Below, piece after piece: positions 7,441-27,600 of a stretch of DNA of 32,000 nucleotides. Source of the DNA: Moraxella nasicaprae (GTDB taxonomy: Bacteria > Pseudomonadota > Gammaproteobacteria > Pseudomonadales > Moraxellaceae). Position 1 is the first letter of the stretch; each line of letters starts with the position of its first letter. The translations under genes and the position numbers were made by a program. Below the pieces are notes generated by a model, which searched no databases, was not told where the DNA came from, and worked only from the letters and a program-made list of their open reading frames with translations. Where the stretch lies: positions 2,070,001 to 2,102,000 of the forward strand of contig NZ_CP089977.1 of NCBI RefSeq assembly GCF_025643275.1, given 5' to 3'.

Positions 7441-7453
7441 GATTGTTTAAAAA

Positions 7454-7672: not shown

Positions 7673-7674
7673 CA

Positions 7675-9260: not shown

Positions 9261-9276
9261 CACACCTTTAACATAC

Positions 9277-9309
9277 GGATTTTTCTTAAAACCCTTTAAA
9301 AGACCCAAA
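9277..9309 (+). repeat. 33-nt conserved intergenic element, copy 2
   Basis: GGATTTTTCTTAAAACCCTTTAAAAGACCCAAA has one mismatch to 2617-2649. Confidence 0.8.
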
Positions 9310-9327
9310 CTCCAAAACCCCCTACAA

Positions 9328-9357
9328 TACACCCAATCACTTTGGGTGTATTTTTTT
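9328..9357 (+). terminator. Rho-independent terminator after gpV
   Basis: TACACCCAA / TTGGGTGTA 9-bp stem, 5-nt loop, T7 run. Confidence 0.7.
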
Positions 9358-9367
9358 GTAGGTCAAA

Positions 9368-9718: not shown

Positions 9719-9726
9719 GGGCGAGC

Positions 9727-11440: not shown

Positions 11441-11662
11441 ACGACTTTAATTTGTAAGGAAAAGATTATGGCAAACTTGCAAGAAACACCCACTTGGGAA
11501 GCTGGTATTTATCAGCTTGAAACTTCTGACCCTGTGATGGGCGGAGAAAATGGTATTGATAATAGAGCTCCAAGACAACTCGCCAACCGCACACTGTGGC
11601 TAAAAAATGAGCTAGCAAGGCAGATTGGGGTGGTCAATAGTGGCAAACTTGGCAAAACTGAA

Positions 11663-12039
11663 AATGCGGTATCAGCAAGCAAACTTGCCACCGCTCGCAA
11701 TATTGCAATGACAGGGACGGCTCGTGGAATGTCAATTTTGACGGCTCACAAAATGCCACAGGTGCCTTAACGCTTGCAAACAGCGGTGTTACGGCAGGCT
11801 CTTATAACTCGGTTACAGTAGATGCCAAAGGACGAGTAACAGCAGGCTTAACCCAAACGCACGGACTGGTAACCGCCACTACCGCACAAGGGACAGCCAA
11901 TGTCGCCACAGGTAACGGCAACACCTTTCTTAACATTGTTGCAAGTGGCGTGGGTCAAACTGCGTCTGTTGGTTCATCCACCCAAATCACAGGTACAAAT
12001 GGTATTACCGTCTCATCAGACACGGCTGGCAAGCTCATT
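11663..12039 (+). repeat. Tail-fibre internal module, copy A (about 377 nt)
   Basis: Encodes N.VSASKLATARNIAMTG(D)GSWNVNFDGSQNATGALTLANSGVTAGSYNSVTVDAKGRVTAGLTQTHGLVTATTA...NTFLNIVASGVGQTASVGSSTQITGTNGI.VSSDTAGKLI. Paralogous to 12547-12924. Confidence 0.85.
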
Positions 12040-12546
12040 TTAGGGCAAACACTTGCCAATAGTTTGACTGATGCTTCTACCGCCAAGGCTTTGACCGCCT
12101 TACAAGGTAAGGTGCTTGATGAGAAGATTACGGCTGTCAATAACGCTTTGACAAGCCACCGCCATAATTGGAATGAGATTGATAGCAAGCCCAGCACTTT
12201 TACGCCATCAAGCCATACACATACCATCGCTAATATTACCGATTATGATGTTAGGCAAATCAGTACTGAAGATTTGGATAGCATTACCAAATGGGGTATT
12301 TATGGACAAGGGGCAAACAATCAATCACTGACTGAGAGAAATTATCCTGTACCTAATGAAGCTGGCACATTGGAAGTTATGCCTGGCACTTACGGACTTC
12401 GCCAAAGATTTACTACATTTGCCACTCATCGTCAGTTTGAGCGCTCAAGAAACAATGCTCAAACAGGCTGGAATGCGTGGACGGAGCTATCAAACACATG
12501 GGACGCCATACGAGGCAAGCCAAATAACCTTGCTACCACCACAAGC

Positions 12547-12924
12547 AATGTCGCCTCTGCCACCAAGCTCCAAACCGCCCGCAATATCGCAATGACTGGC
12601 GATGGCTCGTGGAATGTCAATTTTGACGGCTCACAAAATGCCACAGGTGCCTTAACGCTTGCAAACAGTGGTGTTACGGCAGGCTCCTATAACTCAGTAA
12701 CGGTGGACGCAAAAGGACGAGTTACCGCAGGCTTAACCCAAACGCACGGACTTGTAACCGCCACCACCGCCACAGGGACAACCAACACCGCCACCACGAA
12801 CACTAATACATTTCTAAACATTGTGGCAAGCGGCGTAGGTCAAACTGCGTCTGTTGGCTCAAGTACGCAAATCACAGGCACAAACGGCATCAGCGTATCA
12901 TCAGACACTGCTGGTAAGCTCATT
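12547..12924 (+). repeat. Tail-fibre internal module, copy B (378 nt); a third partial copy lies at about 12940-13035
   Basis: Direct repeat of copy A at an offset of 884/885 nt. Long identical stretches are separated by a divergent Thr/Asn-rich centre. Confidence 0.85.
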
Positions 12925-13346
12925 GTTACCCGTGATAGCAACTCGCCCACCGCCACCAAACTTGCCACCGCCCGTAACATCGCCCTAACAGGAGCGGTAA
13001 CTGGCAATGTCAATTTTGATGGGTCGGGGAATGTGAGTTTGGCAACAACTGTGCAATCCGTGAGTGGCAAAGTGGTTGTTATGACTGGTACTATCGAACA
13101 TGGTGGCACCATTCCACTACCAGCAGGATTTAATGAAAATCAATGCAAGTGGATGGTTTCAATGAATGATGACAATCCAACTCGAACAACATGGGATATT
13201 AACGAAGGAGGGTATCATTTACATTATCGCCAAGAATGCTTTACGGAAGGTCGTGTGGTAACAGCTAGGACTTATCTAGGTGGACATTCTGGCTCATCAT
13301 CTGTTGTGAACAGTAAGGCTAACTACATCATCATTGGAGTGAAATA

Positions 13347-13925
13347 ATGTATTACATTTTTAATAAAGATGGTAAAAATATCGGTCAGTGCGACTTTGAG
13401 CCAAACGCAGAAGACTTAGCAAGTCGCCAAGAAAGCTATCAACTGTACAAAAATCCTTTACAACAAGGGGATGAAATTTGGCTTGTTGATGGAAAAATCA
13501 CAATCATCAGCCCGGCTCAATTAACGACAGAAGAGCTTAAAGTCCAACACCAATCCCAAATCTGGGAAGCCATCAAACAAAAACGTCACACCATCACTCG
13601 TGGCGGGGTTTATGTCAAATCGGTCAAAAAGTGGTTTCATACCGATGATAGTTCTCGCACACAGTATTTGGCATTGCAAATCTTGCCACAGCTACCGCCT
13701 GATTTAATGTGGAAAACGATGGATAACAGCTTTGTCAAATTGGATAAGGCGTTATTGACCGAGCTTGCGATGACGATTTTGACCGCCGAGCAAGCTGATT
13801 TTGCTAATGCTGAAAAGCACCGTTTGGCAATGTTACAGGCACAAAATCCCCTAGAATACGATTATTCAAAGGGTTGGACAGCCATTTATGACCCAACTGA
13901 CAAACAAGGAGCAAGCGATGAATAA
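13347..13925 (+). CDS. Tail fibre assembly / chaperone protein (gpG/Tfa position)
   Basis: 192 aa. TAATG overlap with the fibre gene stop. The call is mainly positional. Confidence 0.6.
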   Translation: MYYIFNKDGKNIGQCDFEPNAEDLASRQESYQLYKNPLQQGDEIWLVDGKITIISPAQLTTEELKVQHQSQIWEAIKQKRHTITRGGVYVKSVKKWFHTDDSSRTQYLALQILPQLPPDLMWKTMDNSFVKLDKALLTELAMTILTAEQADFANAEKHRLAMLQAQNPLEYDYSKGWTAIYDPTDKQGASDE

Positions 13926-14373
13926 AGTCTATTTAGCTTGCTATCGTGGGCGTGGCGACAAATTGACCCACCGCCTATGTGATGGCATTACCCGCTTTTT
14001 TACTCGTGGCAAATACAGCCACACCGAGATTGCCATCGCCTTGCCTGACGGTCGTTACCAATGCTATTCATCAAGCGTGCGTGAAGGTGGTGTGCGTACC
14101 AAGATAATGCCCTTAAATCCTGACAAATGGGACTTAATCGCCCTTGGTGGCATTTCGCCCGAACAAATTACCCGCTATTACCGACAAAATCACGGCTCGG
14201 ATTATGACCTTTTGGGGGCGTTGGGCTGTGTGGCGGGACTACCACAGAACGCAGATAAATTCTTTTGTTCTGAGTGGTGCTACAACGCCATTTTTGGGTC
14301 AAATCAAGGCTTTCGGTTTAGCCCCAATCAGCTTGCCGAGATTGTTCGCCATTTATCCATTTTGGATAACTAA
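13918..14373 (+). CDS. Putative permuted papain-fold (NlpC/P60, YiiX/C92-like) hydrolase
   Basis: ATG at 13918 is preceded by AAGGAG. His-containing YSHTEIAI comes before Cys-containing FCSEWCY, the order expected for permuted NlpC/P60 amidases. Recognition is only by motif. Confidence 0.45.
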   Translation: MNKVYLACYRGRGDKLTHRLCDGITRFFTRGKYSHTEIAIALPDGRYQCYSSSVREGGVRTKIMPLNPDKWDLIALGGISPEQITRYYRQNHGSDYDLLGALGCVAGLPQNADKFFCSEWCYNAIFGSNQGFRFSPNQLAEIVRHLSILDN

Positions 14374-14398
14374 TTTTGTTCTTATTTAGGAGAAATCA

Positions 14399-14920
14399 AT
14401 GCCAAATCCAAGTAACTACCCAACCCAAATCACGCCACATTTTAGCTATCGTGAGCTGACAAGAAGCGAAACTGCCAGACGGCATGGAGTTGCAAACATC
14501 CCAAGCCAAAGCGATCTTGCCAACATCACTTATACCGCTCATCAGCTTGAAAAGGTGCGTGCTTATTTAAATGACAAATACCAAAAGCCCATCGCCATCA
14601 TCGTAACTTCTTGCTTTCGTAGCGAAAGGGTTAATAAACTGGTTGGTGGTTCAAAAACTTCCGCTCATCGCTTTGGACTGGCGGCGGATTGTGATGCTAC
14701 AGGCTTTACATCAAGGGCATTTGCCAAAGAAATCATTGAGATGCGTGATAAGGGCTTGATTGCCTTTGATCAGCTGATTTTGGAATTTCCAGAAAGAGGT
14801 GATGGAGCATGGGTGCATTTGGGCTTTAAAAAAGACGGCAAAGGTCAAAGAAATCAAATCTTAACCGCCACCAAACGAAACGGCAAAACTGTGTATTTGC
14901 AAGGCTTGCAAGGAGGTTAA
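14399..14920 (+). CDS. Peptidase M15A-family peptidoglycan hydrolase (phage endolysin-type)
   Basis: SCFRSERVNKLVGGSKTSAHRFGLAADCD ... GAWVHLG carries the H-x6-D ... H zinc-ligand arrangement of M15 D-Ala-D-Ala / L-Ala-D-Glu peptidases. Confidence 0.8.
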   Translation: MPNPSNYPTQITPHFSYRELTRSETARRHGVANIPSQSDLANITYTAHQLEKVRAYLNDKYQKPIAIIVTSCFRSERVNKLVGGSKTSAHRFGLAADCDATGFTSRAFAKEIIEMRDKGLIAFDQLILEFPERGDGAWVHLGFKKDGKGQRNQILTATKRNGKTVYLQGLQGG

Positions 14921-14959
14921 GATGATTTAGATTAAACGATAAAAAAAGAAAAGACGGTC

Positions 14960-15046
14960 GGTATGACGGTGTGCGACCACCGCCATACCAGCCACGCAGT
15001 GTGAGTGCGTAAGCCCAAAGAACCGCCTGCTTAGCTAAGCGGTGTT
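14960..15046 (+). other. Cluster of three hairpins between the lysis genes and com (possible terminator/structured leader)
   Basis: H1: GGTATGACGGTG-6nt-CACCGCCATACC (11/12 bp, 14960-14989). H2: ACGCA-7nt-TGCGT (14994-15010). H3: ACCGC...GCGGT around the palindrome GCTTAGCTAAGC, followed by GTTATTTT (15022-15050). Confidence 0.4.
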
Positions 15047-15080
15047 ATTTTACCACAAAATCCATAGGATTACGCAAAAA

Positions 15081-15275
15081 ATGAAACAGCGTTGCACAAA
15101 TTGCAAAAAACTTTTAGCCATTGGCACGGGCAATTTTGCCATCAAATGCCCAAGATGCAAAACTTTAAATCAAATTAACACGCAAACCAAAGAATGCCAC
15201 GAGCATCATAACCCTTTAAATAAGGAAACCTATGAATGCTCAAAACAACCCCCAACCAACCCAATCCACCCCTAA
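15081..15275 (+). CDS. com: Com-like zinc-finger translational regulator
   Basis: MKQRCTNCKKLLAIGTGNFAIKCPRCKTLNQI has the CxxC...CxxC layout and wording of phage Mu Com (MKSIRCKNCNKLLF...IRCPRCK). Its 3' end overlaps the start of the downstream methylase gene, as com overlaps mom in Mu. Confidence 0.75.
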   Translation: MKQRCTNCKKLLAIGTGNFAIKCPRCKTLNQINTQTKECHEHHNPLNKETYECSKQPPTNPIHP

Positions 15276-16109
15276 CCCCAAACAATACCCAAAATCAAAA
15301 CCCAGTGTCGGCAGTCTCTTTGCTGGCATTGGCGGATTTGACTTGGGATTTGAAAACGCAGGTTTTTACACCAGCTGGCAAGTGGAAATTGACCCCATTT
15401 GCAAAGCGGTGTTATCAGACCGTTTCCCCCACGCCACCCAGTTTGACGATGTTAGAAACTGCTTGCCCAAAATCCAAGCCCTGCCAAATGGCGGAAGTGT
15501 CGATGTCATGTCTCCATGGCAGGCAAACGAGCAGGACTTCACGGACAGCGGACAGGCTTGTTCTTTGATGCTATCGGTATTATCCAAGCAATTAAGCCAA
15601 GATTTGTCGTGCTTGAAAATGTCACAGGTCTCATCAATTCCAACGATGGCAAAGACCTACAAACAGTCATTGAAACGCTTGCCCAATGCGGGTATGTGGG
15701 ATTTTGGCGAGTGCTGGACAGCCGTTATTTCGGAGTCCCCCAAAAACGCCGTAGAGTATTCTTGGTTGCAGGTCTTGGAGAATACCCACCATTTAGCCTT
15801 ATGGCTGACTTGGGGTCAGTGGAACGCATTTCTGGCAAGACTGAATCGCAATCGTGCTGGGCGGACGCACACCATACGCTACTGGCAGGGGTCGGCTCAT
15901 CCGCCATCAACATCAATTGTGCTGATATCATCGCTGTGCCAAATGGACGGCATCAGATGGCTGTCAGGGAGCGAACGACTGTCGATGATGGGCTTTGCAA
16001 AGGATTGGATGAGACCAACGCTTGTGAGGCTAGGACTGCGGGAAACGCCGTCTGTCCGCAAGTCGCACAGTTTATCGCAAGCCACTTGATGACGTCTTTT
16101 AACCCATAA
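15232..16109 (+). pseudogene. C5-cytosine DNA methyltransferase, disrupted (at least 3 frameshifts; catalytic PCQ motif lost)
   Basis: Motif I LFAGIGGFDLGF is in the frame of 15232. AGKRAGL, VVLENVTGL and VPQKRRRVFLVAG are in the frame of 15516. Motif IX-like SERLSMMGFAKDW (15970-16008) is back in the first frame. Motif X GNAVCPQVAQFIA (from 16041) is again in the second frame. Where GxPCQ is expected the sequence reads SPWQ (15511-15522). Confidence 0.8.
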
Positions 16110-16172
16110 TTGAACCAGCATTTCAACCATTTTGAGTGTCTTGAACGCCTTTAACTTTAAAAGGATAAGTTT

Positions 16173-17039
16173 ATGACACTCAATTCACTTTCTAACAAAC
16201 ATTACAAAACCGCCCCTTTGCCATTTACAGGGCAAAAGCGAATGTTTTTAAGGCACTTTGAAAAAATCTTAAAAGATAATGTCTCAAATGATGGAGAGGG
16301 CTTTACGGTGCTTGATGTCTTTGGCGGTTCTGGACTGCTTGCTCACAATGTCAAGCGTATCTTGCCCAAAGCCAACGTCATTTATAACGACTTTGACGGC
16401 TATGCTGAGCGTTTGGCTCATATTCCCACCACCAATCGCTTACGCCAAGAGCTGTTTGAAATCTTAAAAGACGAGCCAAGAAGTGCCAAATTATCAAACA
16501 CCACCAAAGCCAAAGCCCTAGACCATATCCGTAAAAGTGCCGACAACGGGACTTTTGTTGATGTGCAAACCTTGGCAGGTTGGTTGTTGTTTAGCGGACG
16601 ACAAGTGGGCAATCTTGATGAGTTTTTGGCAGAGTCCACCTTTTATAACCGTATTGTCAAAACTGACTACGACACCGCAGATGGCTATCTGGAAGGTCTT
16701 ATCATTGAATGCCTAGATTTTGAAAAGCTGTTACAAAAATACCAAGACACCCCAAATTGCTTGCTTCTGCTTGACCCGCCTTATGTTTGCACCGCACAGG
16801 GGGCGTATGCCAAGCACGGCTATTTTGGCATGACGAAGTTTTTACGGCTTATGCAGTTTGTGCGTCCACCCTTTATCTTTTTTAGCTCCACCAAAAGCGA
16901 GTTGATGGATTATATGGCTTATGTGGAGCAGTACGAGCCACCCACTTGGCAAAGGGTTGGGGGCTTTGAGCGGATTGTTGTCAATGCTCGCATTAACGCA
17001 CAAATTGGCTATGAAGACAATATTTTGGTTAAGTTTTAA
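16173..17039 (+). CDS. N6-adenine DNA methyltransferase (Dam/D12-class-like), orphan
   Basis: 288 aa. Has the SAM-binding motif LDVFGGSG and the catalytic DPPY (LLLDPPYV) in the alpha-group order. RBS AAGGA. No adjacent restriction endonuclease gene. Confidence 0.8.
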   Translation: MTLNSLSNKHYKTAPLPFTGQKRMFLRHFEKILKDNVSNDGEGFTVLDVFGGSGLLAHNVKRILPKANVIYNDFDGYAERLAHIPTTNRLRQELFEILKDEPRSAKLSNTTKAKALDHIRKSADNGTFVDVQTLAGWLLFSGRQVGNLDEFLAESTFYNRIVKTDYDTADGYLEGLIIECLDFEKLLQKYQDTPNCLLLLDPPYVCTAQGAYAKHGYFGMTKFLRLMQFVRPPFIFFSSTKSELMDYMAYVEQYEPPTWQRVGGFERIVVNARINAQIGYEDNILVKF

Positions 17040-17129
17040 AAAGTGAAAATTCATTACAAAAAGACTGGACTACGCTCTATGAGTACGGCAGTATGTGCCT
17101 TATAAATTAACAAGTTAAAGGTAAATGTA

Positions 17130-17576
17130 ATGTTAGACATTCAAACGGTTTCAAGTTTTGTCCAAGAGTATGGTGTGGTAGATTTTGACTGCGAGATGGA
17201 CGATGGCGTACTTTGGTTTCGGGGTGTCAATTGTTATTTGATTATTGGCAAAGTTACTGACAAGCAGGTGTTTTTGACGGTTTGGGAAGATGATGAGTGC
17301 AATGAAGTCATTGAAAACTTTGAAATCCAGAACCTTGATGAATTGAATGTTTGCTTAAAGAAATACGCCTTGATTGCTCAGGTAAGCACCAAGCAAGATG
17401 AAACCATCCAAAAACCAACCGACACCACGATGATTGATATCTACTTTAAGCTCATTAAAGACAAATTGGCAGAACATCAAATCAACCTTGATTTTGAAAA
17501 ACAAAGCCAAGCCGAAAAGCTGGTCATTCGCCACATTGAGGATAAACTGGTGGAGGTTATCAAATTTTTGCAATAA
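17130..17576 (+). CDS. Acidic hypothetical protein, last gene before the phage end
   Basis: 148 aa with RBS AAAGG. A clean terminator follows. No recognisable family. Confidence 0.5.
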   Translation: MLDIQTVSSFVQEYGVVDFDCEMDDGVLWFRGVNCYLIIGKVTDKQVFLTVWEDDECNEVIENFEIQNLDELNVCLKKYALIAQVSTKQDETIQKPTDTTMIDIYFKLIKDKLAEHQINLDFEKQSQAEKLVIRHIEDKLVEVIKFLQ

Positions 17577-17596
17577 CCAAGTAAGATAAAAAAGTA

Positions 17597-17626
17597 AATG
17601 CCCCAAGTAAGATTGGGGCATTTTTT
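17597..17626 (+). terminator. Rho-independent terminator of the last phage gene
   Basis: AATGCCCCA-8nt-TGGGGCATT followed by TTTT. Confidence 0.75.
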
Positions 17627-17649
17627 ATGGGGTAATTGTAAAAATGAAA

Positions 17650-20600
17650 TTATCTTGCACATAGTGCAACAAAACCAAAAAGATATTTATTGCATAAATA
17701 GGCGAGATTTTTCGCGGCGGGCATCATCATCTCCAATCTTCCTGTATTTATTAGGGCTGCCAATCTATTTGCTTCTTCCTGATTGGCTTTTGGTGCATTT
17801 GCTCTAATTTTATTATAATAAGCCCCATTCCATCTCACCACCTCCTCAGCCATCTGCACTGCCATATTCACATCTTCTTCTGCTAGGGCTGCTACTGTCC
17901 CTGCGATGAGTTTGGCTTGGTTGATGATACTTTGTCTTTGAGAGTCTGTTAGGGTAGTGGGGTCATCTATTTGCCAATCTGCCCAGATTTCTGCCATACT
18001 AGCACCTAAGGCACCTGCTTGGCAAGTTGATCCTTGTGCTTTGGCAGATAGACAGCCTGTGAGTCCTGCGGCAAGTTTGTGGGCGATGTTGTTAATGTTG
18101 CCATCTGTATCAATGGGTTTAACCAAATGAGCAAAGGCTTGTTGATGTGATAGGGCAATCAGTTGATTACCAAGATTGGTTTTTAGGTTGTCTTCTAAGT
18201 CTGTGCCATAGATGGCAGATTGTAGTAGGCTTTTTGAAGTACTTTGGGCAATGCCTTTGATGAATCTGTCATTAAGACTTAACTGGGTTTGGTCAATGCC
18301 TTGTATGTTTAGTCCTTTATCAATCTTATTGCTGATACCAGCACTGGCGATGGCAAAGGCAAGCTGTTTGGCATTGTCTTTATTGCCAAGCTGCTTGATG
18401 GCGGCTTTGATGTTGCCTTGATTATTGATTAGGCTGATGGTGGCTTGTTCGGCAAGGGTGCTAAGAGCGGTATTTGCCATCGCTGTCAGGGTATGACTGC
18501 CCAATAAAGTACCGTTAATCGGTGCAATACCGCCTGTTGCCATTCCCATGGCAATGGTTAAGATGGCAGCCCCTGCTGGAGTAAGACCTGCTTGCTGGTA
18601 GTTCCATTCTTTTTGAGTGAGAATAAGGGTCTGCCAGTCGATGTTGTTTTGCTGGATGAGCGAATTTAGATAGCTGTATTCGGGCTGTTTGGCAAGTTCA
18701 AGGATTTGTTCCTTGATGACTTTTCTTTGGACATCTTTTTCGCTGATAGGGATTTGTACCACAAGACCGCCATCGGCAACAAAACTAGGCGGTGTACTAC
18801 CTGTAAAGCTGGGTAAAACAGCTGTTTGAGTATATTGTCCTTTATCTTGCATTCGTTGCCAAAAGACTTCATTGGCTTGTGAGGTGGTGCTTATATTGAG
18901 AGTGCTAATCGCTGGAAGTAGATGAACTTTGCCGCCTGCTTCAATATTTGCACCAGACAGATAGCTAAATATACTGCCTTGTAGGGTGGTGTCGCCAAGA
19001 GATTTGGTATTGATATAACGAGCGGTCAAAGAGGCGGGCAGGGCAGTAATTTGCAATTTGTGATGATTGGTTGTTGCATTGCCTGCTTTAACGCCCAAGA
19101 TGCGTCTTTTGACCTGAGTATCTTGATGATGCTCATGCACATCATTGACGCTAAATAGATTGATTGCACCTGTAGCAAAGACACTGATATTGCCTGTCGT
19201 ACTCATTTTGGTGGCATAAAAGTCAGCATTACTTTGATGACCTTGAGCGGTTAATGAGATATGATGGGCAGCCAAAGAAGTCGGTAGGGCGGTGGAATAC
19301 TCATCTTGGGTTTGAACATTGATGGTTTTGCGATTGAGTGCACTGCCTTTTTTGCTGCTACTTTCATCGTAGCGATGGGTATAATTGATGGCATGGTCAA
19401 CGAGTAAATGATGATTAGCAGCGATGGTTAGGTTAGACTTAGCATCAATGTTGCCAGCTTGTACAACCAAATGGACTGGCTGCCCTGCTTGATTGGTCTT
19501 GGTGGCAGATAGGCTGACATTACTGGCTGTGATTTGACTTGGCACAAACAAAGCATGGTTGCGATAATAAGAGGAGTTTTCCTTGCCCATTTCATAGATG
19601 TTGTGTGAGCCATCGACTAGGATGCTGGCGGTGATGTTTTGGTCGTTTTTGTGGTATTTGTCAGTTAATGTACCCTGTGCTTGCAAAGTGATGTTATTGG
19701 CAGCGGTCAAGTTCGATGAACGGATTAGAATGCCTTGAGCAGCATTCATGCTGATATTGTTTTGTGCTGTCAGGGTGGAGGGCTGATATTCTGTACCGAT
19801 TGGATTTCTTTTCAAGTCAGCCAGTTGGTCAGTCAATCTTGATACATCAGCTTGCAAAGCCTCCTCTTTTGATTTGGCAGGCAAATGCTTAGATAATACC
19901 GATTCTAATTCGTTGATTTTGGCGTTGGTTTGGTTAATTAGTCGGTCATAGTCAGCCACAGTCTTTGGATCTGCCGGCGAAGTGGGTGATGCTGAACGAA
20001 ATCTAATCCCTGATGGTGGGGGAGGCGGTGGGGGAGGTAAGAGAGTGTCGCCAAGCGATCTGCTGTTTTCTGGTAGAGATGGCGTGGCAGGATTGCTTAA
20101 TGCCTGTCTTTGACTATGATGCAAAGCTAGCTGAAATTGCAGAGAATTAATCTGAGTCTGCAATTGTCGATAAGACTGATATGCGTCAGATTTTTGAAAG
20201 ATTGCTAATGCTTGCTTGGCTTGTTTGAGCTGTTTTTCTATATTGTCAATCGTATGTATGGGCAATGCTTGACCATCTAGGCGATTGCTTAGAGCATCAA
20301 CCAGAACGGAGCCCTTCCCAGCATTTAGATGGATATTTTTACCTGTAATATTTGCCCCTTGTAAAACAATCTCTTGTGCGGATATGGTCAAATTTCCTTT
20401 TGGAGTAAGTTGTGCTAATTGACCTGAGCCAATACCCTTAGTGCCTTCATGACCGATTAAATCAATGTTGCCATTTTGGGACTGTAGCCATAAATCTCCA
20501 TCAGCAGATAATTGATGTGTCTGAGGTCGAATGTGCAATGCTTGCTCGCTAATAATAGATAAGTCGCCACTTAGTGTCGTAGTTTGCGGATTTTTGGTTA

Positions 20601-22197
20601 ACAGCTGTGTTTTGGTTGCATTAGCAAATAATTGACCCTGCGGCTTGATGGACAGCTTTTTGGTTTTTAATAAAATTGCACCAGCCGTCAGATTGGTCGA
20701 TCCTGTAATCGTATGCAAACCAAGTGAAACGCTACTTAAGATACCCTTAGCACTTAAATTACCACCTATATTTTGATCGCCTGTGGTATAAAGCGTTAAA
20801 TGATGATCGGCATTGGCAGTCGTGTTTTGCCAAACTAGGTCTTTTCTAGACTCAATAGAGATGTTTTTGTGTGCAGTTAAATTACTGTTAGTCAGCGTTT
20901 GATTTTGGTGTGTGTAGAGATTGATTGATCCATCTGCATTTAACTGGTTGTCAGTCATTTGTGCACTGCCAGCTAATGATGCTACAGTGATGTTGCCTGT
21001 TGTACGAATACTACTTTTACCGATAGATAGAGCGTCTTTGGTAACTAACTGGACATTGCTGGCAGTCATATTGGACTGCTGTACGCTGAGCGTCTTGGCT
21101 TTGGTTTCAATGTTGCTGGCAGTTAAATTTGTTTGATGTAGATTAAGGGTGTTGTTTGTTGTTAAAAGGATGTCTCTCCCTCCTGTCACATTGCCTGCCA
21201 AAGTTTGATTGTTAGCATTTAGGTGGATATTGCCTTGTTTGGTGCTCATCACCCCTTGTGCCGACTGGTAAATATCTGTTTGGCTACTTAGTAGGATTTG
21301 ATGATCTGCATGTATATTGCCTGTGTTTTTGATGTATCCATCACTACTGACATAGACTTGCTGAGCGGCGTTTAAGCTACCAGCATTATTGACACCAACG
21401 CCCTGATCGGTAACAATCAAACGAATATTGCCAGCATACATACCGCCAAGCTGACCTGTATCAATAGCAATGGTGGCAGCGGAAGATTTATTTGATGATG
21501 CTTGAACAGGAGTGGAAAGTCCATTGGTAATAATATTAGAGCCTGCAACAACATTAATACTATCATTGGCATGGATTTTGCCATTTAATTCCACTGCTTT
21601 AGCATATAGATTAAGATAATTGGCTTGATGCCTATCGGACATACCTGTTTGACCGATATTAATTTTACCAGCATTGATTTGATGGCTAATGTTGCCCTGC
21701 AAATGACTAACCGTGCCAGTTGTTAATGTTGCCTCATTTGTGTTAATAAACCCAGCACCAGAAACTACAATTCCTGACGGGTTGGCAATGATAACATTGG
21801 CTGTTTGTCCAGCAACCTCAATAATACCAGCAATATTGGTGGCTTTACTACTGTTAATTTCATTGATGATGGTATGGGCAGAACCTTGTTGTAAAAAAGG
21901 ATTACCCTCAATCTGATTGGCAAGCTGTGTCTGTGTACTACCACGAGCATTGTTTAGCACGACACCTATGTCATTAACATTGAACCTTTCGTATTGATTA
22001 TGAGATATGCCATTAACAGGTGTGCGAATCTGTACCACAGGAACAGCTTGTCCATTAGTATGAGTTCCTGCAAGAATAATGGGTTTTTTATTAGAATCTG
22101 CTTTTGGATCGCTGATAACTTGGGCAATGCTTGATGTTGAAATTGATAAAAGAATGGCAGAAATGGCAATATTCAAAGATGATTTTGAAAATAGCAT
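17650..22197 (-). CDS. cdiA: CdiA/TpsA filamentous-haemagglutinin-type exoprotein, copy 1; alternative C-terminal tip truncated by, and reading into, the prophage end
   Basis: 1,515 aa. Signal peptide plus TPS domain (NQYERFNV, QIEGNPFL, NPSGIVVSGAGFINT). Long FHA-type repeats. DUF637-like pretoxin segment (AGLTPAGAAILTIAMGMATGG). VRWN motif at aa 1454-1457, then only 58 further codons. The last ~24 codons lie within the putative phage end. Confidence 0.85.
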   Translation of the reverse strand: MLFSKSSLNIAISAILLSISTSSIAQVISDPKADSNKKPIILAGTHTNGQAVPVVQIRTPVNGISHNQYERFNVNDIGVVLNNARGSTQTQLANQIEGNPFLQQGSAHTIINEINSSKATNIAGIIEVAGQTANVIIANPSGIVVSGAGFINTNEATLTTGTVSHLQGNISHQINAGKINIGQTGMSDRHQANYLNLYAKAVELNGKIHANDSINVVAGSNIITNGLSTPVQASSNKSSAATIAIDTGQLGGMYAGNIRLIVTDQGVGVNNAGSLNAAQQVYVSSDGYIKNTGNIHADHQILLSSQTDIYQSAQGVMSTKQGNIHLNANNQTLAGNVTGGRDILLTTNNTLNLHQTNLTASNIETKAKTLSVQQSNMTASNVQLVTKDALSIGKSSIRTTGNITVASLAGSAQMTDNQLNADGSINLYTHQNQTLTNSNLTAHKNISIESRKDLVWQNTTANADHHLTLYTTGDQNIGGNLSAKGILSSVSLGLHTITGSTNLTAGAILLKTKKLSIKPQGQLFANATKTQLLTKNPQTTTLSGDLSIISEQALHIRPQTHQLSADGDLWLQSQNGNIDLIGHEGTKGIGSGQLAQLTPKGNLTISAQEIVLQGANITGKNIHLNAGKGSVLVDALSNRLDGQALPIHTIDNIEKQLKQAKQALAIFQKSDAYQSYRQLQTQINSLQFQLALHHSQRQALSNPATPSLPENSRSLGDTLLPPPPPPPPSGIRFRSASPTSPADPKTVADYDRLINQTNAKINELESVLSKHLPAKSKEEALQADVSRLTDQLADLKRNPIGTEYQPSTLTAQNNISMNAAQGILIRSSNLTAANNITLQAQGTLTDKYHKNDQNITASILVDGSHNIYEMGKENSSYYRNHALFVPSQITASNVSLSATKTNQAGQPVHLVVQAGNIDAKSNLTIAANHHLLVDHAINYTHRYDESSSKKGSALNRKTINVQTQDEYSTALPTSLAAHHISLTAQGHQSNADFYATKMSTTGNISVFATGAINLFSVNDVHEHHQDTQVKRRILGVKAGNATTNHHKLQITALPASLTARYINTKSLGDTTLQGSIFSYLSGANIEAGGKVHLLPAISTLNISTTSQANEVFWQRMQDKGQYTQTAVLPSFTGSTPPSFVADGGLVVQIPISEKDVQRKVIKEQILELAKQPEYSYLNSLIQQNNIDWQTLILTQKEWNYQQAGLTPAGAAILTIAMGMATGGIAPINGTLLGSHTLTAMANTALSTLAEQATISLINNQGNIKAAIKQLGNKDNAKQLAFAIASAGISNKIDKGLNIQGIDQTQLSLNDRFIKGIAQSTSKSLLQSAIYGTDLEDNLKTNLGNQLIALSHQQAFAHLVKPIDTDGNINNIAHKLAAGLTGCLSAKAQGSTCQAGALGASMAEIWADWQIDDPTTLTDSQRQSIINQAKLIAGTVAALAEEDVNMAVQMAEEVVRWNGAYYNKIRANAPKANQEEANRLAALINTGRLEMMMPAAKNLAYLCNKYLFGFVALCAR
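17677..17726 (+). mobile_element. Putative Mu-type right end (transposase-binding region, terminal ...CA)
   Basis: Read outside-in, the region gives TGATGCCCGCCGCGAAAAATCTCGCCTATTTATGCAATAAAT. My recollection of Mu attR is TGAAGCGGCGCACGAAAAACGCGAAAGCGTTTCACGATAAAT. TGA, CGAAAAA and ATAAAT fall at the same offsets. The exact terminus is ambiguous (CA at 17723, 17726 or 17729). Confidence 0.5.
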
Positions 22198-22339
22198 TTT
22201 AACTTCCTTGTAAAATTGTCAGCTCCTTCTTAGATTTAGTGAAAGTTTAGCAAATACCAAAAAATAGTTCAAGTCGGAATTGGTATGATTTTTGAGGAAA
22301 TTTAATCACGGGTTGGTGTGTATGAATACCTTATTTAAC
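17837..22339. repeat. 4,503-bp direct repeat, copy 1 (cdiA promoter plus codons 1-1453)
   Basis: Identical to 25632-30134 wherever compared. All six-frame sub-ORFs recur at a +7,795 offset with identical translations. Confidence 0.9.
22244..22272 (-). promoter_or_regulatory. Sigma-70-like promoter of cdiA copy 1
   Basis: The - strand reads TTGAAC-17 nt-TAAACT. It is followed by RBS AGGAAG 6 nt before the ATG. Confidence 0.5.
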
Positions 22340-22812
22340 TAATCTTTTATGTAACGAACTTCAAAATTATAATAATATTAAAAATCAATTATTAACTAAT
22401 TTCTTTGATTTTTGAGTTCATAAACAAGCATTTTGTTCGTCTTATTATGCCACATCTTATAGATATTATAAGTCTTTTGCTTGCAGAAATGCCAAGACAA
22501 GACTGCGAAAAAATTAAAAAAATGAGAGTTTGGTTCCCACAAGAACGGGAGAGGAGCGGTGTTCTTATGTGTCATGTAAAGCAGACTATCTGTGCAATAC
22601 AGCCTAAAACAAGGCATGGAGCATCCGCTAAAACTGATGGCACGCACCACCTTTATCCCATGGATGGATGACATCTGGGATCGGGGTATGTACGAAAGAC
22701 AGAGTGCTGATTATTACTGGCAAGGTTATAAAGATTTGTGCTTTAGAGTGCAGGCGTATGTCAATGAGAATCCCAAGCTAAGAGACATGTATCCCTAAAC
22801 CGCTTTATCAAG

Positions 22813-22844
22813 AATAAAAAACCACCATCGAAAAGATGGTGGTT
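22813..22844 (-). terminator. Rho-independent terminator of the cdiA-immunity operon
   Basis: The - strand reads AACCACCATC-TTTTC-GATGGTGGTT followed by TTTTTATT, about 50 nt after the stop at 22894. Confidence 0.75.
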
Positions 22845-22893
22845 GGTGGGGTTGGTTATGCAGTGTACTAGCACAATGCTGAGTCTGATATAA

Positions 22894-23772
22894 CTATAAC
22901 TTACTAGCCCAAGGACCAAAATCAAACCTAGAATAATCCTCTCCAACTTGTGAAAATACATGTAAGAAATATTCATCTAGCATCTCTTGTGGGTTATTGA
23001 TTTCATAAATTCCATTAATAAAGTCGCCATCTTTTACCCAAAACATACGATGGTCATAATAGTAACACATGAGTATTAAATCATATTCTTTTGGGTCTTC
23101 ATCAGGCTTACAGCAATCTATCATAACCCTTAGATTGGGAAAACCATCTGTACGATATTTTTCTTGTTTTTCAATACCTTCAATTTCAATATCAATAAAA
23201 GCATAGGGAATTTTTTTAACCAAACTTTCAATTGCTTGCTTGGCTTTTTTGCGTGAGTTGGGTAAGTAAATATCAAATGGTTTCCAACAGCTATATGGGT
23301 CTCCGATTAGCATGGTTCCCCCTTGAATATACCTAACACTATCAGATAGTAACACGCCACCAAATGCCTTTAACCAACCATCTTTTAAATAGTTTGGTAG
23401 CCAATGGTAATAATCTTCACTAGGGTCAGTTAAAAAATAAATTCTTTGGTTTAACTCAAAAAATGTTGATAAAGATAAATTTAACTCAATTAATTCATAC
23501 CAATAAACTGTTAATTGGCAATTTAATTGGAAATCATTTAAATATTGATAGGTTTTTGGATAATGGGCTTGTAATGATAATATGGATTTGTGAATATCCA
23601 ATCCTAACTGTCTGATTTGTTCATCATAAATCCACTTATAATCACTGTTATTGATATAATCCATTTCTTTGTGCTTCATATCAGAGACAAAATCTGCAAC
23701 ATACTCAACAATTTTATTTGACATATTTTGCTCAAGTTTGTCTTTTGTATAGATAGGCATAGTTTTCTCCAT
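22894..23772 (-). CDS. Second immunity-like protein, paralogue of the 23796-24656 product
   Basis: 292 aa, acidic and Tyr/Asp-rich, with no signal peptide. Shares PKTYQ(L/Y)L and a C-terminal NNPQE.(I/L)D.Y..H(I/V)FS...D..F.P block with the upstream gene. Very AT-rich. Confidence 0.6.
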   Translation of the reverse strand: MEKTMPIYTKDKLEQNMSNKIVEYVADFVSDMKHKEMDYINNSDYKWIYDEQIRQLGLDIHKSILSLQAHYPKTYQYLNDFQLNCQLTVYWYELIELNLSLSTFFELNQRIYFLTDPSEDYYHWLPNYLKDGWLKAFGGVLLSDSVRYIQGGTMLIGDPYSCWKPFDIYLPNSRKKAKQAIESLVKKIPYAFIDIEIEGIEKQEKYRTDGFPNLRVMIDCCKPDEDPKEYDLILMCYYYDHRMFWVKDGDFINGIYEINNPQEMLDEYFLHVFSQVGEDYSRFDFGPWASKL

Positions 23773-23795
23773 AAAAACATATCTAATTCTATAAT

Positions 23796-24656
23796 CTAAA
23801 AATCCACCATATATGGAGTAAAATCAAAGTCGCCATCTTGACCCGAAAAAATATGGGCTGCGTAACTATCAATGGCTTCTTGTGGATTATTCAATCTTTT
23901 TATGCTAAATACATCAGCATTTTGGATAATATAGATATTTTCTCCCTGATCAATAGATGAGCAAAATAATTGGAAACCAGTGTTGCTATAGTCGTCCATA
24001 GTTCGTGTATCTAATAGATTTCTTAACTCAAAATAATCATTTCTATTATCCCCTGTATACTGATCGTCATCATAATCTCTCACGATGCGATGATTAAACT
24101 TAGCATCTAAAAAATCACAATATTTATCTCTATTTTGTCTAGTTTCAAAATTATCTATAATAGAGTGAATTGGACTTTGTAAAGTTGTTGGCAGACGGCT
24201 TTTAAAAGGACTAGTAACTGTGTCTTCTGCAATATGCCACGCATCTGTGTGGAGTATCCAAGAGCGAAGAACAAAAACTGGTAAATTTTTGTAAAAAATA
24301 CTATCAGGATCTTGTTCGTAGCAAGGAATTGATGGATATGATAAATAAAAACATTGATGATTAACAATTATACCAAATTGAGTAATATCTCCCATAATTT
24401 CTGGATAAGGTGATTTTTCTACAGCATAGAAGAACTCTGCTTTTAAAAGCAGCTGATAGGTTTTGGGTTGAAGGCTTTCAAAGGGTTGGACTAAATATTC
24501 CTTTAAATCGCCTTTTGAAATAAAATGGTAGCCATCATATTTTCTTTCATTGCATTTTAAACTTAGTTCCATAAATGGAATATCATCAAAATCATTTTGA
24601 TAAAAGACTTTATCACAACTTTCCTCTAACTGAGTTTTAGTCAAAAATAGTTTCAT
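23796..24656 (-). CDS. cdiI: Putative CdiI immunity protein for the HINT-HNH toxin tip
   Basis: 286 aa. The ATG overlaps the cdiA stop (ATGA), the usual cdiA-cdiI coupling. Cytoplasmic, acidic, AT-rich. Family not recognised. Confidence 0.6.
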   Translation of the reverse strand: MKLFLTKTQLEESCDKVFYQNDFDDIPFMELSLKCNERKYDGYHFISKGDLKEYLVQPFESLQPKTYQLLLKAEFFYAVEKSPYPEIMGDITQFGIIVNHQCFYLSYPSIPCYEQDPDSIFYKNLPVFVLRSWILHTDAWHIAEDTVTSPFKSRLPTTLQSPIHSIIDNFETRQNRDKYCDFLDAKFNHRIVRDYDDDQYTGDNRNDYFELRNLLDTRTMDDYSNTGFQLFCSSIDQGENIYIIQNADVFSIKRLNNPQEAIDSYAAHIFSGQDGDFDFTPYMVDF

Positions 24657-27600
24657 GATTTTTTTCTCCGCTTAAATAATTCTTGATGAACTTTTTCGGT
24701 TGCATCTTTGAGTATCTGCTGCTGTTGCCTTAACAAATATGCTCTATATTTAGGAGATATTTCTTTATTCCCCTTAACATATTTAACCCATCCATCAGTA
24801 CCTGTTTCAATCTTAGAACCCTTAGAAGAGTTAAGATGTTTAGGTAGTGGCTGTAAATTAGAAGGATTATTTATGAGCTTTTCTTGTACATCTTTTGGCA
24901 AATCATTAAAGCCTGGAATTTTTTTAAATTCCGCTCTGGGGAGAATATGATCAAAAGATGCTACAGCGTCATCGGGAAAGAATTTTTTGGTATTTGTAAA
25001 AGGATCCAAATACATTACCTTGCCAGTTTTAGCATCTACCCAATCACCTTTGATTAAAATCTCGGCAGCATTACCATATTTGTTGCCAAAATCACAACAA
25101 TTCGCATTATGCACCCACACACCCAATCTGCCCACATGATAGGTGTGAAAGTCATCCACTTCGATATTATAGACAGTGTCGGTGTGGTTGGGTAGTAGGT
25201 ATTGGCTTATAACTTCTACTTCTTGATTGTTTCTATCAAGTAGTATCATGCCTTGTTCTAGTAAAGACGCTTTTAGCCAGCCTGTATCTTTAATCCAAAA
25301 TGGGTGTTCAGCTGTGGTTTCTAAGGTTTCAATTTGACCTTGATGGTTTTTGACCGTTACTTGGAAAATGGGTTGGTCAGGTGTTGCTTTGGTGGCAATG
25401 ACAGGACGATAGCCGTATTCTAGGGTAATGTCATTTCTTGTCCAAATCAGTTCACCACCTGTGAAGGTTTCGATGGTTTTCAAGCCTTCTGATGTTTCAA
25501 TCAGGGTTCCTGCGGTAAAGCAAACGGTGCCTTTCTTGCACAGTTTAGAGATGCTATTGATAATAGCGGCACTAGCACCAGCACCAAAACCACCACCCAA
25601 TCTATTTAAACTGGTGGTTGCATTCCACCTAACCACCTCCTCAGCCATCTGCACTGCCATATTCACATCTTCTTCTGCTAGGGCTGCTACTGTCCCTGCG
25701 ATGAGTTTGGCTTGGTTGATGATACTTTGTCTTTGAGAGTCTGTTAGGGTAGTGGGGTCATCTATTTGCCAATCTGCCCAGATTTCTGCCATACTAGCAC
25801 CTAAGGCACCTGCTTGGCAAGTTGATCCTTGTGCTTTGGCAGATAGACAGCCTGTGAGTCCTGCGGCAAGTTTGTGGGCGATGTTGTTAATGTTGCCATC
25901 TGTATCAATGGGTTTAACCAAATGAGCAAAGGCTTGTTGATGTGATAGGGCAATCAGTTGATTACCAAGATTGGTTTTTAGGTTGTCTTCTAAGTCTGTG
26001 CCATAGATGGCAGATTGTAGTAGGCTTTTTGAAGTACTTTGGGCAATGCCTTTGATGAATCTGTCATTAAGACTTAACTGGGTTTGGTCAATGCCTTGTA
26101 TGTTTAGTCCTTTATCAATCTTATTGCTGATACCAGCACTGGCGATGGCAAAGGCAAGCTGTTTGGCATTGTCTTTATTGCCAAGCTGCTTGATGGCGGC
26201 TTTGATGTTGCCTTGATTATTGATTAGGCTGATGGTGGCTTGTTCGGCAAGGGTGCTAAGAGCGGTATTTGCCATCGCTGTCAGGGTATGACTGCCCAAT
26301 AAAGTACCGTTAATCGGTGCAATACCGCCTGTTGCCATTCCCATGGCAATGGTTAAGATGGCAGCCCCTGCTGGAGTAAGACCTGCTTGCTGGTAGTTCC
26401 ATTCTTTTTGAGTGAGAATAAGGGTCTGCCAGTCGATGTTGTTTTGCTGGATGAGCGAATTTAGATAGCTGTATTCGGGCTGTTTGGCAAGTTCAAGGAT
26501 TTGTTCCTTGATGACTTTTCTTTGGACATCTTTTTCGCTGATAGGGATTTGTACCACAAGACCGCCATCGGCAACAAAACTAGGCGGTGTACTACCTGTA
26601 AAGCTGGGTAAAACAGCTGTTTGAGTATATTGTCCTTTATCTTGCATTCGTTGCCAAAAGACTTCATTGGCTTGTGAGGTGGTGCTTATATTGAGAGTGC
26701 TAATCGCTGGAAGTAGATGAACTTTGCCGCCTGCTTCAATATTTGCACCAGACAGATAGCTAAATATACTGCCTTGTAGGGTGGTGTCGCCAAGAGATTT
26801 GGTATTGATATAACGAGCGGTCAAAGAGGCGGGCAGGGCAGTAATTTGCAATTTGTGATGATTGGTTGTTGCATTGCCTGCTTTAACGCCCAAGATGCGT
26901 CTTTTGACCTGAGTATCTTGATGATGCTCATGCACATCATTGACGCTAAATAGATTGATTGCACCTGTAGCAAAGACACTGATATTGCCTGTCGTACTCA
27001 TTTTGGTGGCATAAAAGTCAGCATTACTTTGATGACCTTGAGCGGTTAATGAGATATGATGGGCAGCCAAAGAAGTCGGTAGGGCGGTGGAATACTCATC
27101 TTGGGTTTGAACATTGATGGTTTTGCGATTGAGTGCACTGCCTTTTTTGCTGCTACTTTCATCGTAGCGATGGGTATAATTGATGGCATGGTCAACGAGT
27201 AAATGATGATTAGCAGCGATGGTTAGGTTAGACTTAGCATCAATGTTGCCAGCTTGTACAACCAAATGGACTGGCTGCCCTGCTTGATTGGTCTTGGTGG
27301 CAGATAGGCTGACATTACTGGCTGTGATTTGACTTGGCACAAACAAAGCATGGTTGCGATAATAAGAGGAGTTTTCCTTGCCCATTTCATAGATGTTGTG
27401 TGAGCCATCGACTAGGATGCTGGCGGTGATGTTTTGGTCGTTTTTGTGGTATTTGTCAGTTAATGTACCCTGTGCTTGCAAAGTGATGTTATTGGCAGCG
27501 GTCAAGTTCGATGAACGGATTAGAATGCCTTGAGCAGCATTCATGCTGATATTGTTTTGTGCTGTCAGGGTGGAGGGCTGATATTCTGTACCGATTGGAT

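Follow-up and report, generated by a model that had tools for sequence, protein, structure and literature searches.

A BcepMu-like transposable prophage ends within the toxin tip of a duplicated cdiA gene in Moraxella nasicaprae

In the 32,000-nucleotide stretch of Moraxella nasicaprae DNA analysed here, which we call the window, a BcepMu-like temperate myovirus has very probably integrated by transposition inside the CT1 toxin tip of cdiA copy 1. Positions 1-17726 hold the right half of the myovirus prophage, and its last base, 17726, falls within cdiA copy 1. Comparison with related prophages and with intact CT1 homologues places the element boundary at 17726/17727, 100 nt past the VRWN codons. 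Of the roughly 167 residues of CT1, 33 remain, about 80% of the tip having been lost, and the copy 1 ORF closes with 25 codons and a stop that are phage DNA. Through this insertion the strain has probably been deprived of one CDI toxin out of two. As a gene disruption by a transposable phage it is clean but ordinary and of a kind already known, and as a plain case of phage-driven change in inter-bacterial competition systems it opens no new question.

The prophage boundary in cdiA copy 1

The features around the boundary are the following.

1-17726, + strand: right half of a BcepMu-like transposable myovirus prophage (PHROG and Pfam matches; collinear with IMG/VR prophages)
17130-17576, + strand: last phage ORF, 148 aa, without known family; kept in relatives L001, L003 and L004, absent from L007
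17596-17623, no strand: hairpin (11-pair stem, flanked on either side by T-runs), read as a bidirectional terminator
17627-17726, + strand: phage right end (attR-type transposon end), terminal ...GGCATCA-3', common to L003/L004 and L007
17650-17726, - strand: phage-encoded tail of the fusion ORF (..MMPAAKNLAYLCNKYLFGFVALCAR and stop); its 25 residues match the translated right ends of L003 and L007 (tblastn)
17685-17693, - strand: proposed transposase-binding core R2, GCAATAAAT, offsets 34-42 from the tip
17707-17715, - strand: proposed transposase-binding core R1, GCGAAAAAT, offsets 12-20 from the tip
17727-17732, no strand: host TCATCT, predicted copy of the 6-bp target duplication (compare GCCAAA in contig 2843589229_000003, and PMC8705779)
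17727-17826, - strand: retained host-encoded start of CT1, 33 codons (GAYYNKIRANAPKANQEEANRLAALINTGRLEM) and one base, with about 64% amino acid identity to P0001 and P0002
17827-17838, - strand: VRWN codons, a VENN-type motif marking where the toxin tip begins; VRWN is also conserved in P0001, P0002 and L283/L284
17650-22197, - strand: cdiA copy 1, truncated and phage-fused, 1515 aa, with TPS, DUF637 and PT-VENN and an NPXG adhesin domain

The terminal ...ATTTTTCGCGGNNGGCATCA is common to related IMG/VR prophages, and in our alignment A1 the window and these relatives part company right after CATCA. The bases next to the right end are TCATCT in the window, GCCAAA in L003 and GTCAAG in L007, and by blastn the similarity of the prophage to L003 ceased precisely at 17726. 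An exact pattern search of IMG/VR for this right end returned the three contigs already known and none further.

The end terminates in CA, and read outside-in from 17726 it starts with TG and runs TGATGCCCGCCGCGAAAAATCTCGCCTATTTATGCAATAAAT. The Mu right end (record AF083977) reads TGAAGCGGCGCACGAAAAACGCGAAAGCGTTTCACGATAAATGCG, with TG, CGAAAAA and ATAAAT at offsets equal to those of the window. Agreement with Mu amounted to 13 of the terminal 20 nt, attained by 8 of 63,981 positions on both strands of the window, and to 22 over 45 nt, which 36 positions attain. The terminal 21 nt matched the BcepMu right end at 15 positions, the top score among about 64,000 window positions, and the Mu right end at 13. 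Both cores are in register with BcepMu. At the offsets of R1, GCGATATTT occurs in the BcepMu right end and ACGAAAAAC in that of Mu, and the R2 motif recurs at offsets 35-43, reading GCAATAAAT or GCGATAAAT in the left ends of the family and GCGATAAAT in the right end of BcepMu. We infer that R1 and R2 are the sites that bind the transposase.

On the host side, copy 1 showed TPS (1e-40), DUF637 (5e-21) and PT-VENN domains, the last at residues 1414-1454 and ending in VRWN. Past VRWN the gene has 58 codons (GAYYNK...LEMMMPAAKNLAYLCNKYLFGFVALCAR*), with no host gene beyond. DNA identity to the intact orphan CT of L282 was 87/112 (78%, 17727-17838) before the junction and 20/77 (26%) after it. By its sequence, the hairpin at 17596-17623 ends the phage late transcript and, on the opposite strand, lies just past the stop of the cdiA1-phage fusion ORF.

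Every sequence feature described in a first-pass annotation of this DNA was recovered, and its span of 17650-17836 is exactly the portion of copy 1 downstream of the DNA repeat described below. It had counted only 58 codons after VRWN and no immunity gene in copy 1, in agreement with the ORF at 17650-22197, and had placed the last phage gene and its terminator about 100 nt inside the end, where the 148-aa ORF and the hairpin indeed lie. Its in-register alignment with the Mu right end held against the Mu record. Some 24 terminal codons had been assigned to the phage end; 25 now match translated phage ends. The truncation of CT1 that it proposed is supported by the intact homologues, which run about 134 residues further.

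The phage family and its transposition machinery

Gene order in the prophage part of the window is Gp37, sheath, tube, tape measure, baseplate, fibres, endolysin, two DNA methyltransferases and the 148-aa ORF, with tail-module homologues of Gp37, sheath, tube, GpU, GPD, V, W, J and I. All 17.7 kb of the visible prophage were collinear with the IMG/VR relatives at 72-88% nucleotide identity, and the visible structural genes are long and open. There is some decay: the C5 methyltransferase occupies two frames in the window, whereas in L001 it is intact (351 aa). The prophage may be defective. A megablast search of the prophage against sequenced phages gave a sole match of 113 nt, to Moraxella catarrhalis phages.

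The transposition genes were seen in the relatives. These encode an rve-type DDE transposase of 592-598 aa (L023:965-2743, L097:10752-12548), which gave weak rve, IS481 and IS3-type matches and is 44% identical over 97% of its length to BcepMu gp09, annotated as 'Tn552/IS1604 rve transposase'. Beside it lies an AAA_22 ATPase (2e-18; L023:2701-3885, L097:12560-13687), in the position of BcepMu gp08. DUF3164, Mu Gp27, Portal_Mu, Mu F, the Mu G family, Gp36 and Gp37 were found as well. No Mu-specific Pfam domain was detected in the transposase of the relatives, nor any structure match to MuA in the PDB, even at E values up to 1, and no integrase was seen in the relatives examined. A gene order as in Mu, in which 20 kb would separate the transposase from the sheath downstream of it, was considered for the family and dropped: in the relatives this distance is only 9 kb, and the head genes are located elsewhere.

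The relatives occupy many insertion sites in unrelated target genes, eight junctions being available including that of the window. The right end was seen with three differing flanks (window, L003/L004, L007). A common left end was recovered from L105, L106, L108, L112, L113 and L117 with six differing flanks, five of them in alignment A2. It begins TAAACCCC or TAAACCCCACC, that is with TA and not TG, conforms to the type TAAA(C/A)CCCACC...TGC(A/G)ATAAATGGG, and is an imperfect inverted copy of the right end. Only one relative, contig 2843589229_000003, carried both junctions; the others stop 45 nt before the left or about 300 nt before the right end. It is flanked by the 6-bp direct repeat GCCAAA, the boundaries of the duplication being set by comparison of the six left ends and three right ends. 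Removal of one GCCAAA copy restored a lambda-K-like ORF with a Prok-JAB match and a weaker, sub-threshold match to NlpC/P60.

The literature gives a target duplication of 6 bp for B3/Tn552-type transposases (PMC8705779); PMC2628397 was also relied on for the duplication length. From the 6 bp in this relative and from PMC8705779, TCATCT (17727-17732) is therefore predicted as the duplicated target in the window, and not the 5-bp TCATC of the first-pass annotation. Its central inference, a transposable prophage landing in cdiA-CT1, is supported by the common end, by the transposase and ATPase of the relatives and by the intact CT1 homologues. The alternative it had named, an integrase/att-type boundary in a prophage without transposase genes, was not what the relatives showed, with their transposase, varied sites and no integrase seen. 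Of the MuA/MuB-like genes it anticipated, the relatives have a transposase and an AAA+ ATPase, though without a MuA match, and the other end is inverted in the family as foreseen, but imperfectly so and starting with TA.

The alignments assign the window prophage to the BcepMu-like transposable phages, a supercluster known from prophages of Haemophilus and Aggregatibacter (PMC6776037). Judged from its relatives, the phage is supported as one of the BcepMu/Tn552-related (rve) transposase kind and not of the MuA kind. It shares with BcepMu the rve/Tn552-related transposase, the AAA+ transposition protein, DUF3164 and the Mu-type head genes (all in relatives), a right end beginning TGA.GC with repeated cores at offsets 12-20 and about 35-43, and a P2-like contractile tail in the gene order of gp39-gp52, the sheath being 42.6% identical to BcepMu gp39. 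Unlike BcepMu, a Burkholderia phage of the genus Bcepmuvirus, it resides in Moraxella, and protein identity is only about 43%. Furthermore, the gene order of the left arm differs: relatives of the L097 type have everything from the left end to the G/I boundary inverted with respect to BcepMu, and those of the L095 type show a second inversion confined to the head block (6 kb, in opposite orientations in L095 and L097). The family left end is TA and not TG, and the accessory genes at the right end are methyltransferases where BcepMu has an acyltransferase. With Mu it has in common, in outline, a temperate life style, DDE transposition at near-random sites with inactivation of the genes entered, the right end in register and a DNA-modification gene adjoining it. 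It differs from Mu in a transposase family without MuA domains and a 6-bp duplication (both in relatives; 5 bp in Mu), and no invertible G segment or gin was seen within the window. The closest sequenced isolate by tail sheath was Pasteurella phage AFS-2018a (MH238466; 62%, full-length), which is absent among the 25 matches listed for the transposase of the relatives (44 further records lie beyond this list).

The duplicated cdiA locus and the CT1 family

Copy 1 shares the plan of CdiA/TPS toxins, with TPS, DUF637, PT-VENN and the VENN-type VRWN ahead of a variable tip. It departs from them in lacking about 80% of that tip and an immunity gene after it. Different, too, are the two full-length copies in a perfect DNA repeat (17837-22339 = 25632-30134, 4503 bp, 100% identical); the two copies are identical as far as VRWN, and copy 2 carries a tip, CT2, of the PT-HINT type. 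There is no cdiB within the window; it may be elsewhere in the genome. Upstream of copy 2, on the other strand, lie yajC (30605-30940) and secD (from about 31094), and a genome-contig scan with a SecD fragment, whose best match was 82% identical and came from M. pluranimalium, found cdiA adjoining yajC/secD in no relative.

The CT1 family was found by an exhaustive HMMER search with a 41-aa query. P0001, P0002, L283 and L284 carry VRWN followed by a 167-aa CT. The family also recurs as orphan modules with a small ORF after them, as in L282, where the ORF has 166 aa (L282:8203-8703) and is immunity-like; 3' remnants are common in orphan arrays (L285-L289). CT1 represents a previously unclassified CdiA-CT family of 167 aa with a candidate 166-aa immunity protein, and it gave no Pfam match. 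The C-terminal 94 aa of copy 1 had zero matches in a word-indexed protein search, exact-protein look-ups of CdiA copy 1 and of the sheath gave no record, and genome-contig and metagenome-contig scans with a 60-aa CT1 query returned nothing. The same was true of a viral-contig scan for the missing CT1 half. Metagenome matches to this half were intact or remnant CT genes, none adjoining a phage end. In a tblastn search against plasmids, FHA-like genes of M. bovis matched only up to the VENN motif (43%) and CT1 was not matched.

Proposed insertion event, rival readings and insertion sites

We propose that the transposition proteins of this phage group, a Tn552-related rve-type DDE transposase (TnpA) and its AAA+ partner (TnpB), would have brought the right end ...ATTTTTCGCGGCGGGCATCA-3' to the CT1-coding tip and joined it there. 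At either end TnpA would bind a pair of repeated cores (GCGAAAAAT at offsets 12-20, GCAATAAAT at 34-42), the target would be cut with a 6-bp stagger and joined to the 3'-OH of the terminal A, and repair would leave TCATCT duplicated at both junctions. The missing 134 or so CT1 codons and the immunity gene would then be found past the left prophage end, on the minus strand, the continuation being expected to resemble (N)KENLDYLY...GTYGFYDD.YNFEMH..LRPDELLRNANTKIGSP...FNKTNYNPKNII. Since the prophage is taken as 35-36 kb, the window should begin very roughly 18 kb to the right of this left end. CdiA copy 1 would now be a toxin-less stalk, with copy 2 still intact. Adjacent deletions or inversions can arise from transposable phages, and for this reason the other CT1 half may be missing or located elsewhere.

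The boundary could be genuine and yet belong to a defective remnant or to a tail cluster that has been domesticated, and not to a complete transposable prophage, or a later rearrangement could have removed or displaced the other CT1 half, so that neither the rest of CT1 nor cdiI would be found just beyond a left end. We consider this unlikely. In its favour, no more than the late right half can be seen, the C5 methyltransferase has a frameshift when compared with that of L001, relatives show rearrangements as large as the head-gene inversion between L095 and L097, and 3' remnants of the toxin family abound in the orphan arrays. However, the 17.7 kb run collinear with relatives that look complete, no base is missing from the right end, which has both core repeats, and the structural genes have stayed long and open.

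Membership of the Mu genus type proper, with a MuA/MuB-type transposase, a 5-bp duplication and near-perfect TG...CA inverted ends, would account for the 13/20 terminal identity with CGAAAAA and ATAAAT in register, and for the Mu-like Gp37 and gene order of the tail region. Yet the right end is nearer to BcepMu (15/21), the relatives' transposase is 44% identical to BcepMu TnpA and has no MuA domain or structure match, its rve, IS481 and IS3-type matches being weak, and the left end with TA and the 6-bp duplication of the relative do not fit either, which makes a true Mu very improbable. To a copy 1 C-terminus that is naturally short, or to site-specific att integration beside the gene end, we assign next to no probability. 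The ORF is open to 17650 and NL-YL in its phage-encoded tail resembles the NLDYL of intact homologues, but this likeness is three residues out of register, the final 77 nt have homologues in phage ends from three unrelated contexts, homology to intact CT genes ends at the junction, and the relatives sit at many sites with a transposase and no integrase seen.

With transposition into CT1 as the preferred reading, the prophage boundary can be annotated at base level, and copy 1 as a toxin-less, pseudogene-like fusion and not as a short novel toxin. The data also place BcepMu-like transposable phages in Moraxella, and the ends, ...ATTTTTCGCGGNNGGCATCA on the right and TAAACCCCACCACAATAAACC...TGCAATAAATGGG on the left, can be used to find further copies.

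As for the choice of target, two of the eight junctions fall in cdiA-type loci (window, L007) and one in an RTX-repeat protein of >1260 aa; three others are within other mobile elements and two outside long ORFs. That family insertion is non-random, being preferred, tolerated or selected in very large secreted toxin/adhesin genes, is improbable. If such a bias were true, the phage would act as a recurrent switch disarming contact-dependent competition systems of the host, and a perfectly duplicated cdiA could serve as a spare copy. In L007, orphan PT-VENN modules lie downstream of the junction. The flanking ORF there (607 aa) had no Pfam or NCBIfam match, and from such a downstream module together with our reading of its sequence it appears CdiA-like.

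Right end of the prophage and truncation of cdiA copy 1

The stretch joins a prophage arm to host DNA with a pair of cdiA genes. G+C content differs between the two, at 46% for the phage DNA and 41% for the host DNA.

1-17726, + strand: phage late genes, contractile tail; host DNA from 17727 onward
17596-17623: phage terminator hairpin, T-runs flanking both sides
17650-22197, - strand: cdiA copy 1
24653-29992, - strand: cdiA copy 2
30605-30940, + strand (opposite to the cdiA pair): yajC
from about 31094, + strand: start of secD

Inward from 17726, the sequence reads TGATGCCCGCCGCGAAAAATC...GCAATAAAT. The first-pass annotation had likened it to the right end of phage Mu, and the Mu sequence given there agrees with AF083977, our reference. 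Identity over the first 20 bases was 13/20, a level reached at only 8 of about 64,000 window positions; the resemblance is real but modest and alone would not prove a phage end. Relatives were found by an IMG/VR scan with the methyltransferase adjoining the phage end; their versions of this protein are 81-93% identical to that of the window. In the alignment of right ends, the window and the related prophage contigs L003/L004 and L007 had the terminal sequence ...ATTTATTGCA.AAAT.GG.G.GATTTTTCGCGG..GGCATCA in common, and from the next base on their flanks were all completely different. By blastn the window was collinear with relatives across all 17.7 kb (72-88% identity), and the match to L003 ended exactly at 17726. 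The shared terminus, the divergent flanks and this stop therefore place the final base of a mobile element at 17726; its insertion site differs from genome to genome.

As the first-pass annotation had accurately described, copy 1 continues for 58 codons after its VRWN motif, with no gene following before phage DNA. Initial searches returned no relatives of this toxin tip (CT1). Two, P0001 and P0002, emerged when HMMER was run exhaustively with 41 residues spanning VRWN; both are 64% identical and run 167 residues past this motif. Compared with contig L282, DNA identity was 87/112 from the VRWN codons as far as the junction and 20/77 beyond it. The host-encoded part ends ...TTG GAG ATG A, whereas the homologue reads ...TTG GAG GTT AAC AAA GAG, and the C-terminal 25 residues encoded by copy 1 matched the right ends of L003 and L007 in translation. 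The drop in identity and the phage-matching residues indicate that a fifth of the copy 1 tip remains and that its product terminates in phage-encoded sequence. On the minus strand, the phage hairpin lies 27 nt beyond the stop codon (17650) of the cdiA1-phage fusion ORF.

With a phage end common to relatives at 17726 and CT1 homology stopping at the junction, the proposed landing of a transposable phage in cdiA-CT1 is well supported and correct in substance. With an intact TPS domain and shaft, CdiA copy 1 could still be exported and displayed; toxin delivery, however, would be lost. If the copy 1 immunity gene is still present, the prophage would lie between it and copy 1. Copy 2 was untouched; its tip is of the PT-HINT type, and two ORFs (286 and 292 aa) lie downstream. 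Inactivation of a target gene by a transposable phage is well known, and the present case adds one more example. Because the left half, the transposase and the second junction lie outside the window, the completeness and activity of the prophage and the location of the CT1 remainder rank as predictions.

Phage type, ends and insertion sites

Followed leftward, the relatives' contigs carry genes for a CI-type repressor (with an S24 peptidase domain in L097) and a protein of about 300 aa. Also encoded are a 592-598 aa protein that weakly matches the integrase core (rve), along with an AAA_22 ATPase and DUF3164. Their head genes are Mu Gp27, large terminase, Portal_Mu, Mu F, a Mu G-family protein and Gp36. 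Late genes in the window are ordered Gp37, sheath, tube, tape measure and GpU-, GPD-, V-, W-, J- and I-like baseplate genes; fibres, endolysin, C5- and N6-type DNA methyltransferases and a 148-aa ORF follow rightmost. The relatives' 598-aa protein was 44% identical to BcepMu gp09 ('Tn552/IS1604 rve transposase') over 97% of its length, and among the matches listed the transposases of phiE255 and many Pseudomonas transposable phages were similarly close. For this protein, neither a MuA-specific domain nor a match to MuA structures was found. The window sheath was 42.6% identical to BcepMu gp39 and 62% identical to that of Pasteurella phage AFS-2018a. The similarities of transposase and sheath define the family as BcepMu-like; such phages have been described before in Pasteurellaceae (PMC6776037). 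The absence of a MuA-specific domain required the Mu-type label to be corrected. The terminal 21 bases of the window prophage agreed with the BcepMu right end at 15/21, and no other window position on either strand scored as high.

The left end was common to five contigs (TAAACCCCACCACAATAAACCAACCA...TGCAATAAATGGGATAAT), followed by five different flanks. It starts TA, as TAAACCCC, TAATCCCC or TAAAACCC (left-end contigs L105, L106, L108, L112 and L113 at about 6727-6752; L117 at 8354). TG...CA termini are stated for BcepMu-related elements (PMC2628397). Compared with the TG reported as typical of Mu- and BcepMu-like elements, the left end here deviates, whereas the right end conforms (CA). The two ends form inverted repeats (T.A..CCC.CC.C.A.AAA.C), as had been expected of an inverted copy, but imperfect ones. 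In each end a 9-bp core occurs twice, at offsets 12-20 and 34/35-42/43; the BcepMu counterparts at these offsets are GCGATATTT and GCGATAAAT.

Both junctions were present in one relative, contig 2843589229_000003:

Left junction, L117:8353/8354: ...CACGCCAAA / TAAAACCC
Right junction, L003:11533/11534: GGCATCA / GCCAAATCC

The flanking repeat is GCCAAA, 6 bp rather than the 5 bp anticipated earlier. Deleting one copy rebuilds a lambda-K-like ORF with a Prok-JAB match and, below threshold, a weaker one to NlpC/P60; this ORF lies among the clustered tail genes of a different prophage. Duplications are 6 bp for B3/Tn552-type transposases as against five for Mu (PMC8705779). For the window prophage, whose second junction lies outside the window, a TCATCT duplication is predicted. 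By analogy with Mu, B3 and Tn552-type elements, TnpA would bind the phage ends at the repeated cores, the target would be captured with TnpB and cut with a 6-bp stagger, and the terminal A would be joined to the target, with repair following.

Other flanks revealed as targets a >1260-aa RTX-repeat protein (L108), a phage capsid-like gene (L112/L100), an IS3-type transposase (L113) and the lambda-K-like tail gene (L003/L117), all dispensable or mobile DNA. L007 (11154-16628) shows a second, independent family member inserted in what is apparently another cdiA-type locus. There, a 607-aa open frame without any family hit or similarity to the window CdiA runs outward from the phage end, followed by small membrane ORFs and, beyond these, an orphan module that has a PT-VENN domain and the motif VEWN.

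Rearrangements and variable phage genes

A 6-kb block (gp27-terminase-portal-F-G) occurred in both orientations among close relatives (L095 37-5833 versus L097 6235-273). The L097 type corresponds to the BcepMu order with the entire segment from the left end to the G/I boundary inverted. The title of a 2018 paper cited in PMC8705779 speaks of 'two genomic organisations' among such phages. In the window, the C5-cytosine methyltransferase (15232-16109) is split into two overlapping frames of 285 and 197 aa, and in relative L001 it is a single 351-aa ORF; the split version is probably a frameshift or indel pseudogene. Given this split and the relatives' rearrangements, the element may be defective or rearranged.

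Within the tail operon, but on the opposite (minus) strand, 3212-3586 codes for a predicted membrane protein of 124 aa; the tail chaperone ORFs lie to one side of it and the tape measure to the other. It may be a moron, since this stretch had no alignment to relatives. The tail-fibre region (about 11640-13540) was likewise unalignable with most relatives, whereas its flanks aligned; only L001 extended through it, to 13033. The fibre ORF at 11950-13347 contains two occurrences of an internal repeat, 'GQTASVGSSTQITGTNGI.VSSDTAGKLI'.

The CT1 family and the cdiA pair

P0001 is an orphan cdiA-CT module within an array on L282, and a 166-aa ORF that follows it (6810-8703 for the two), with an N-terminal hydrophobic segment, is a candidate immunity protein. 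The same intact tip was found in metagenome contigs L283 and L284 (about 9900-10402 in the latter). Five further contigs (L285-L289) held 3' remnants of a CT1-like gene downstream of unrelated ORFs, typical orphan toxin array debris; these begin at residue 45 or 65 of a 134-aa query that starts just past the phage junction. Another contig (L290) has a 45%-identical version behind an AENN motif. Pfam has no family for the CT1 toxin domain or the 166-aa ORF, and CT1 belongs to an unclassified CdiA-CT family with 167 aa after VRWN.

TPS, DUF637 and PT-VENN domains were found in both cdiA products. No cdiB transporter gene lies beside the pair (29993-32000), where yajC and secD directly adjoin; the SecD fragment was most similar to Moraxella species (M. 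pluranimalium, 82%). CT2, the copy 2 tip, combines PT-HINT with a C-terminal domain bearing a DHILP...NLQPLPKHLNSSKG motif. The ORFs 3' of it (286, 292 and 92 aa; 22396-24656) had no family match and are candidates for the CT2 immunity gene. L282 carries a 287-aa ORF in the same position after a PT-HINT module, with faint similarity at its C-terminus. Both cdiA genes have in common a perfect 4503-bp direct repeat (17837-22339 = 25632-30134, zero differences), which begins 142 bp upstream of the ATG and extends to the VRWN codons, right at which the copies diverge. This identity suggests that the duplication is very recent or that gene conversion is ongoing, and recombination between the copies would remove CT2 plus its downstream ORFs.
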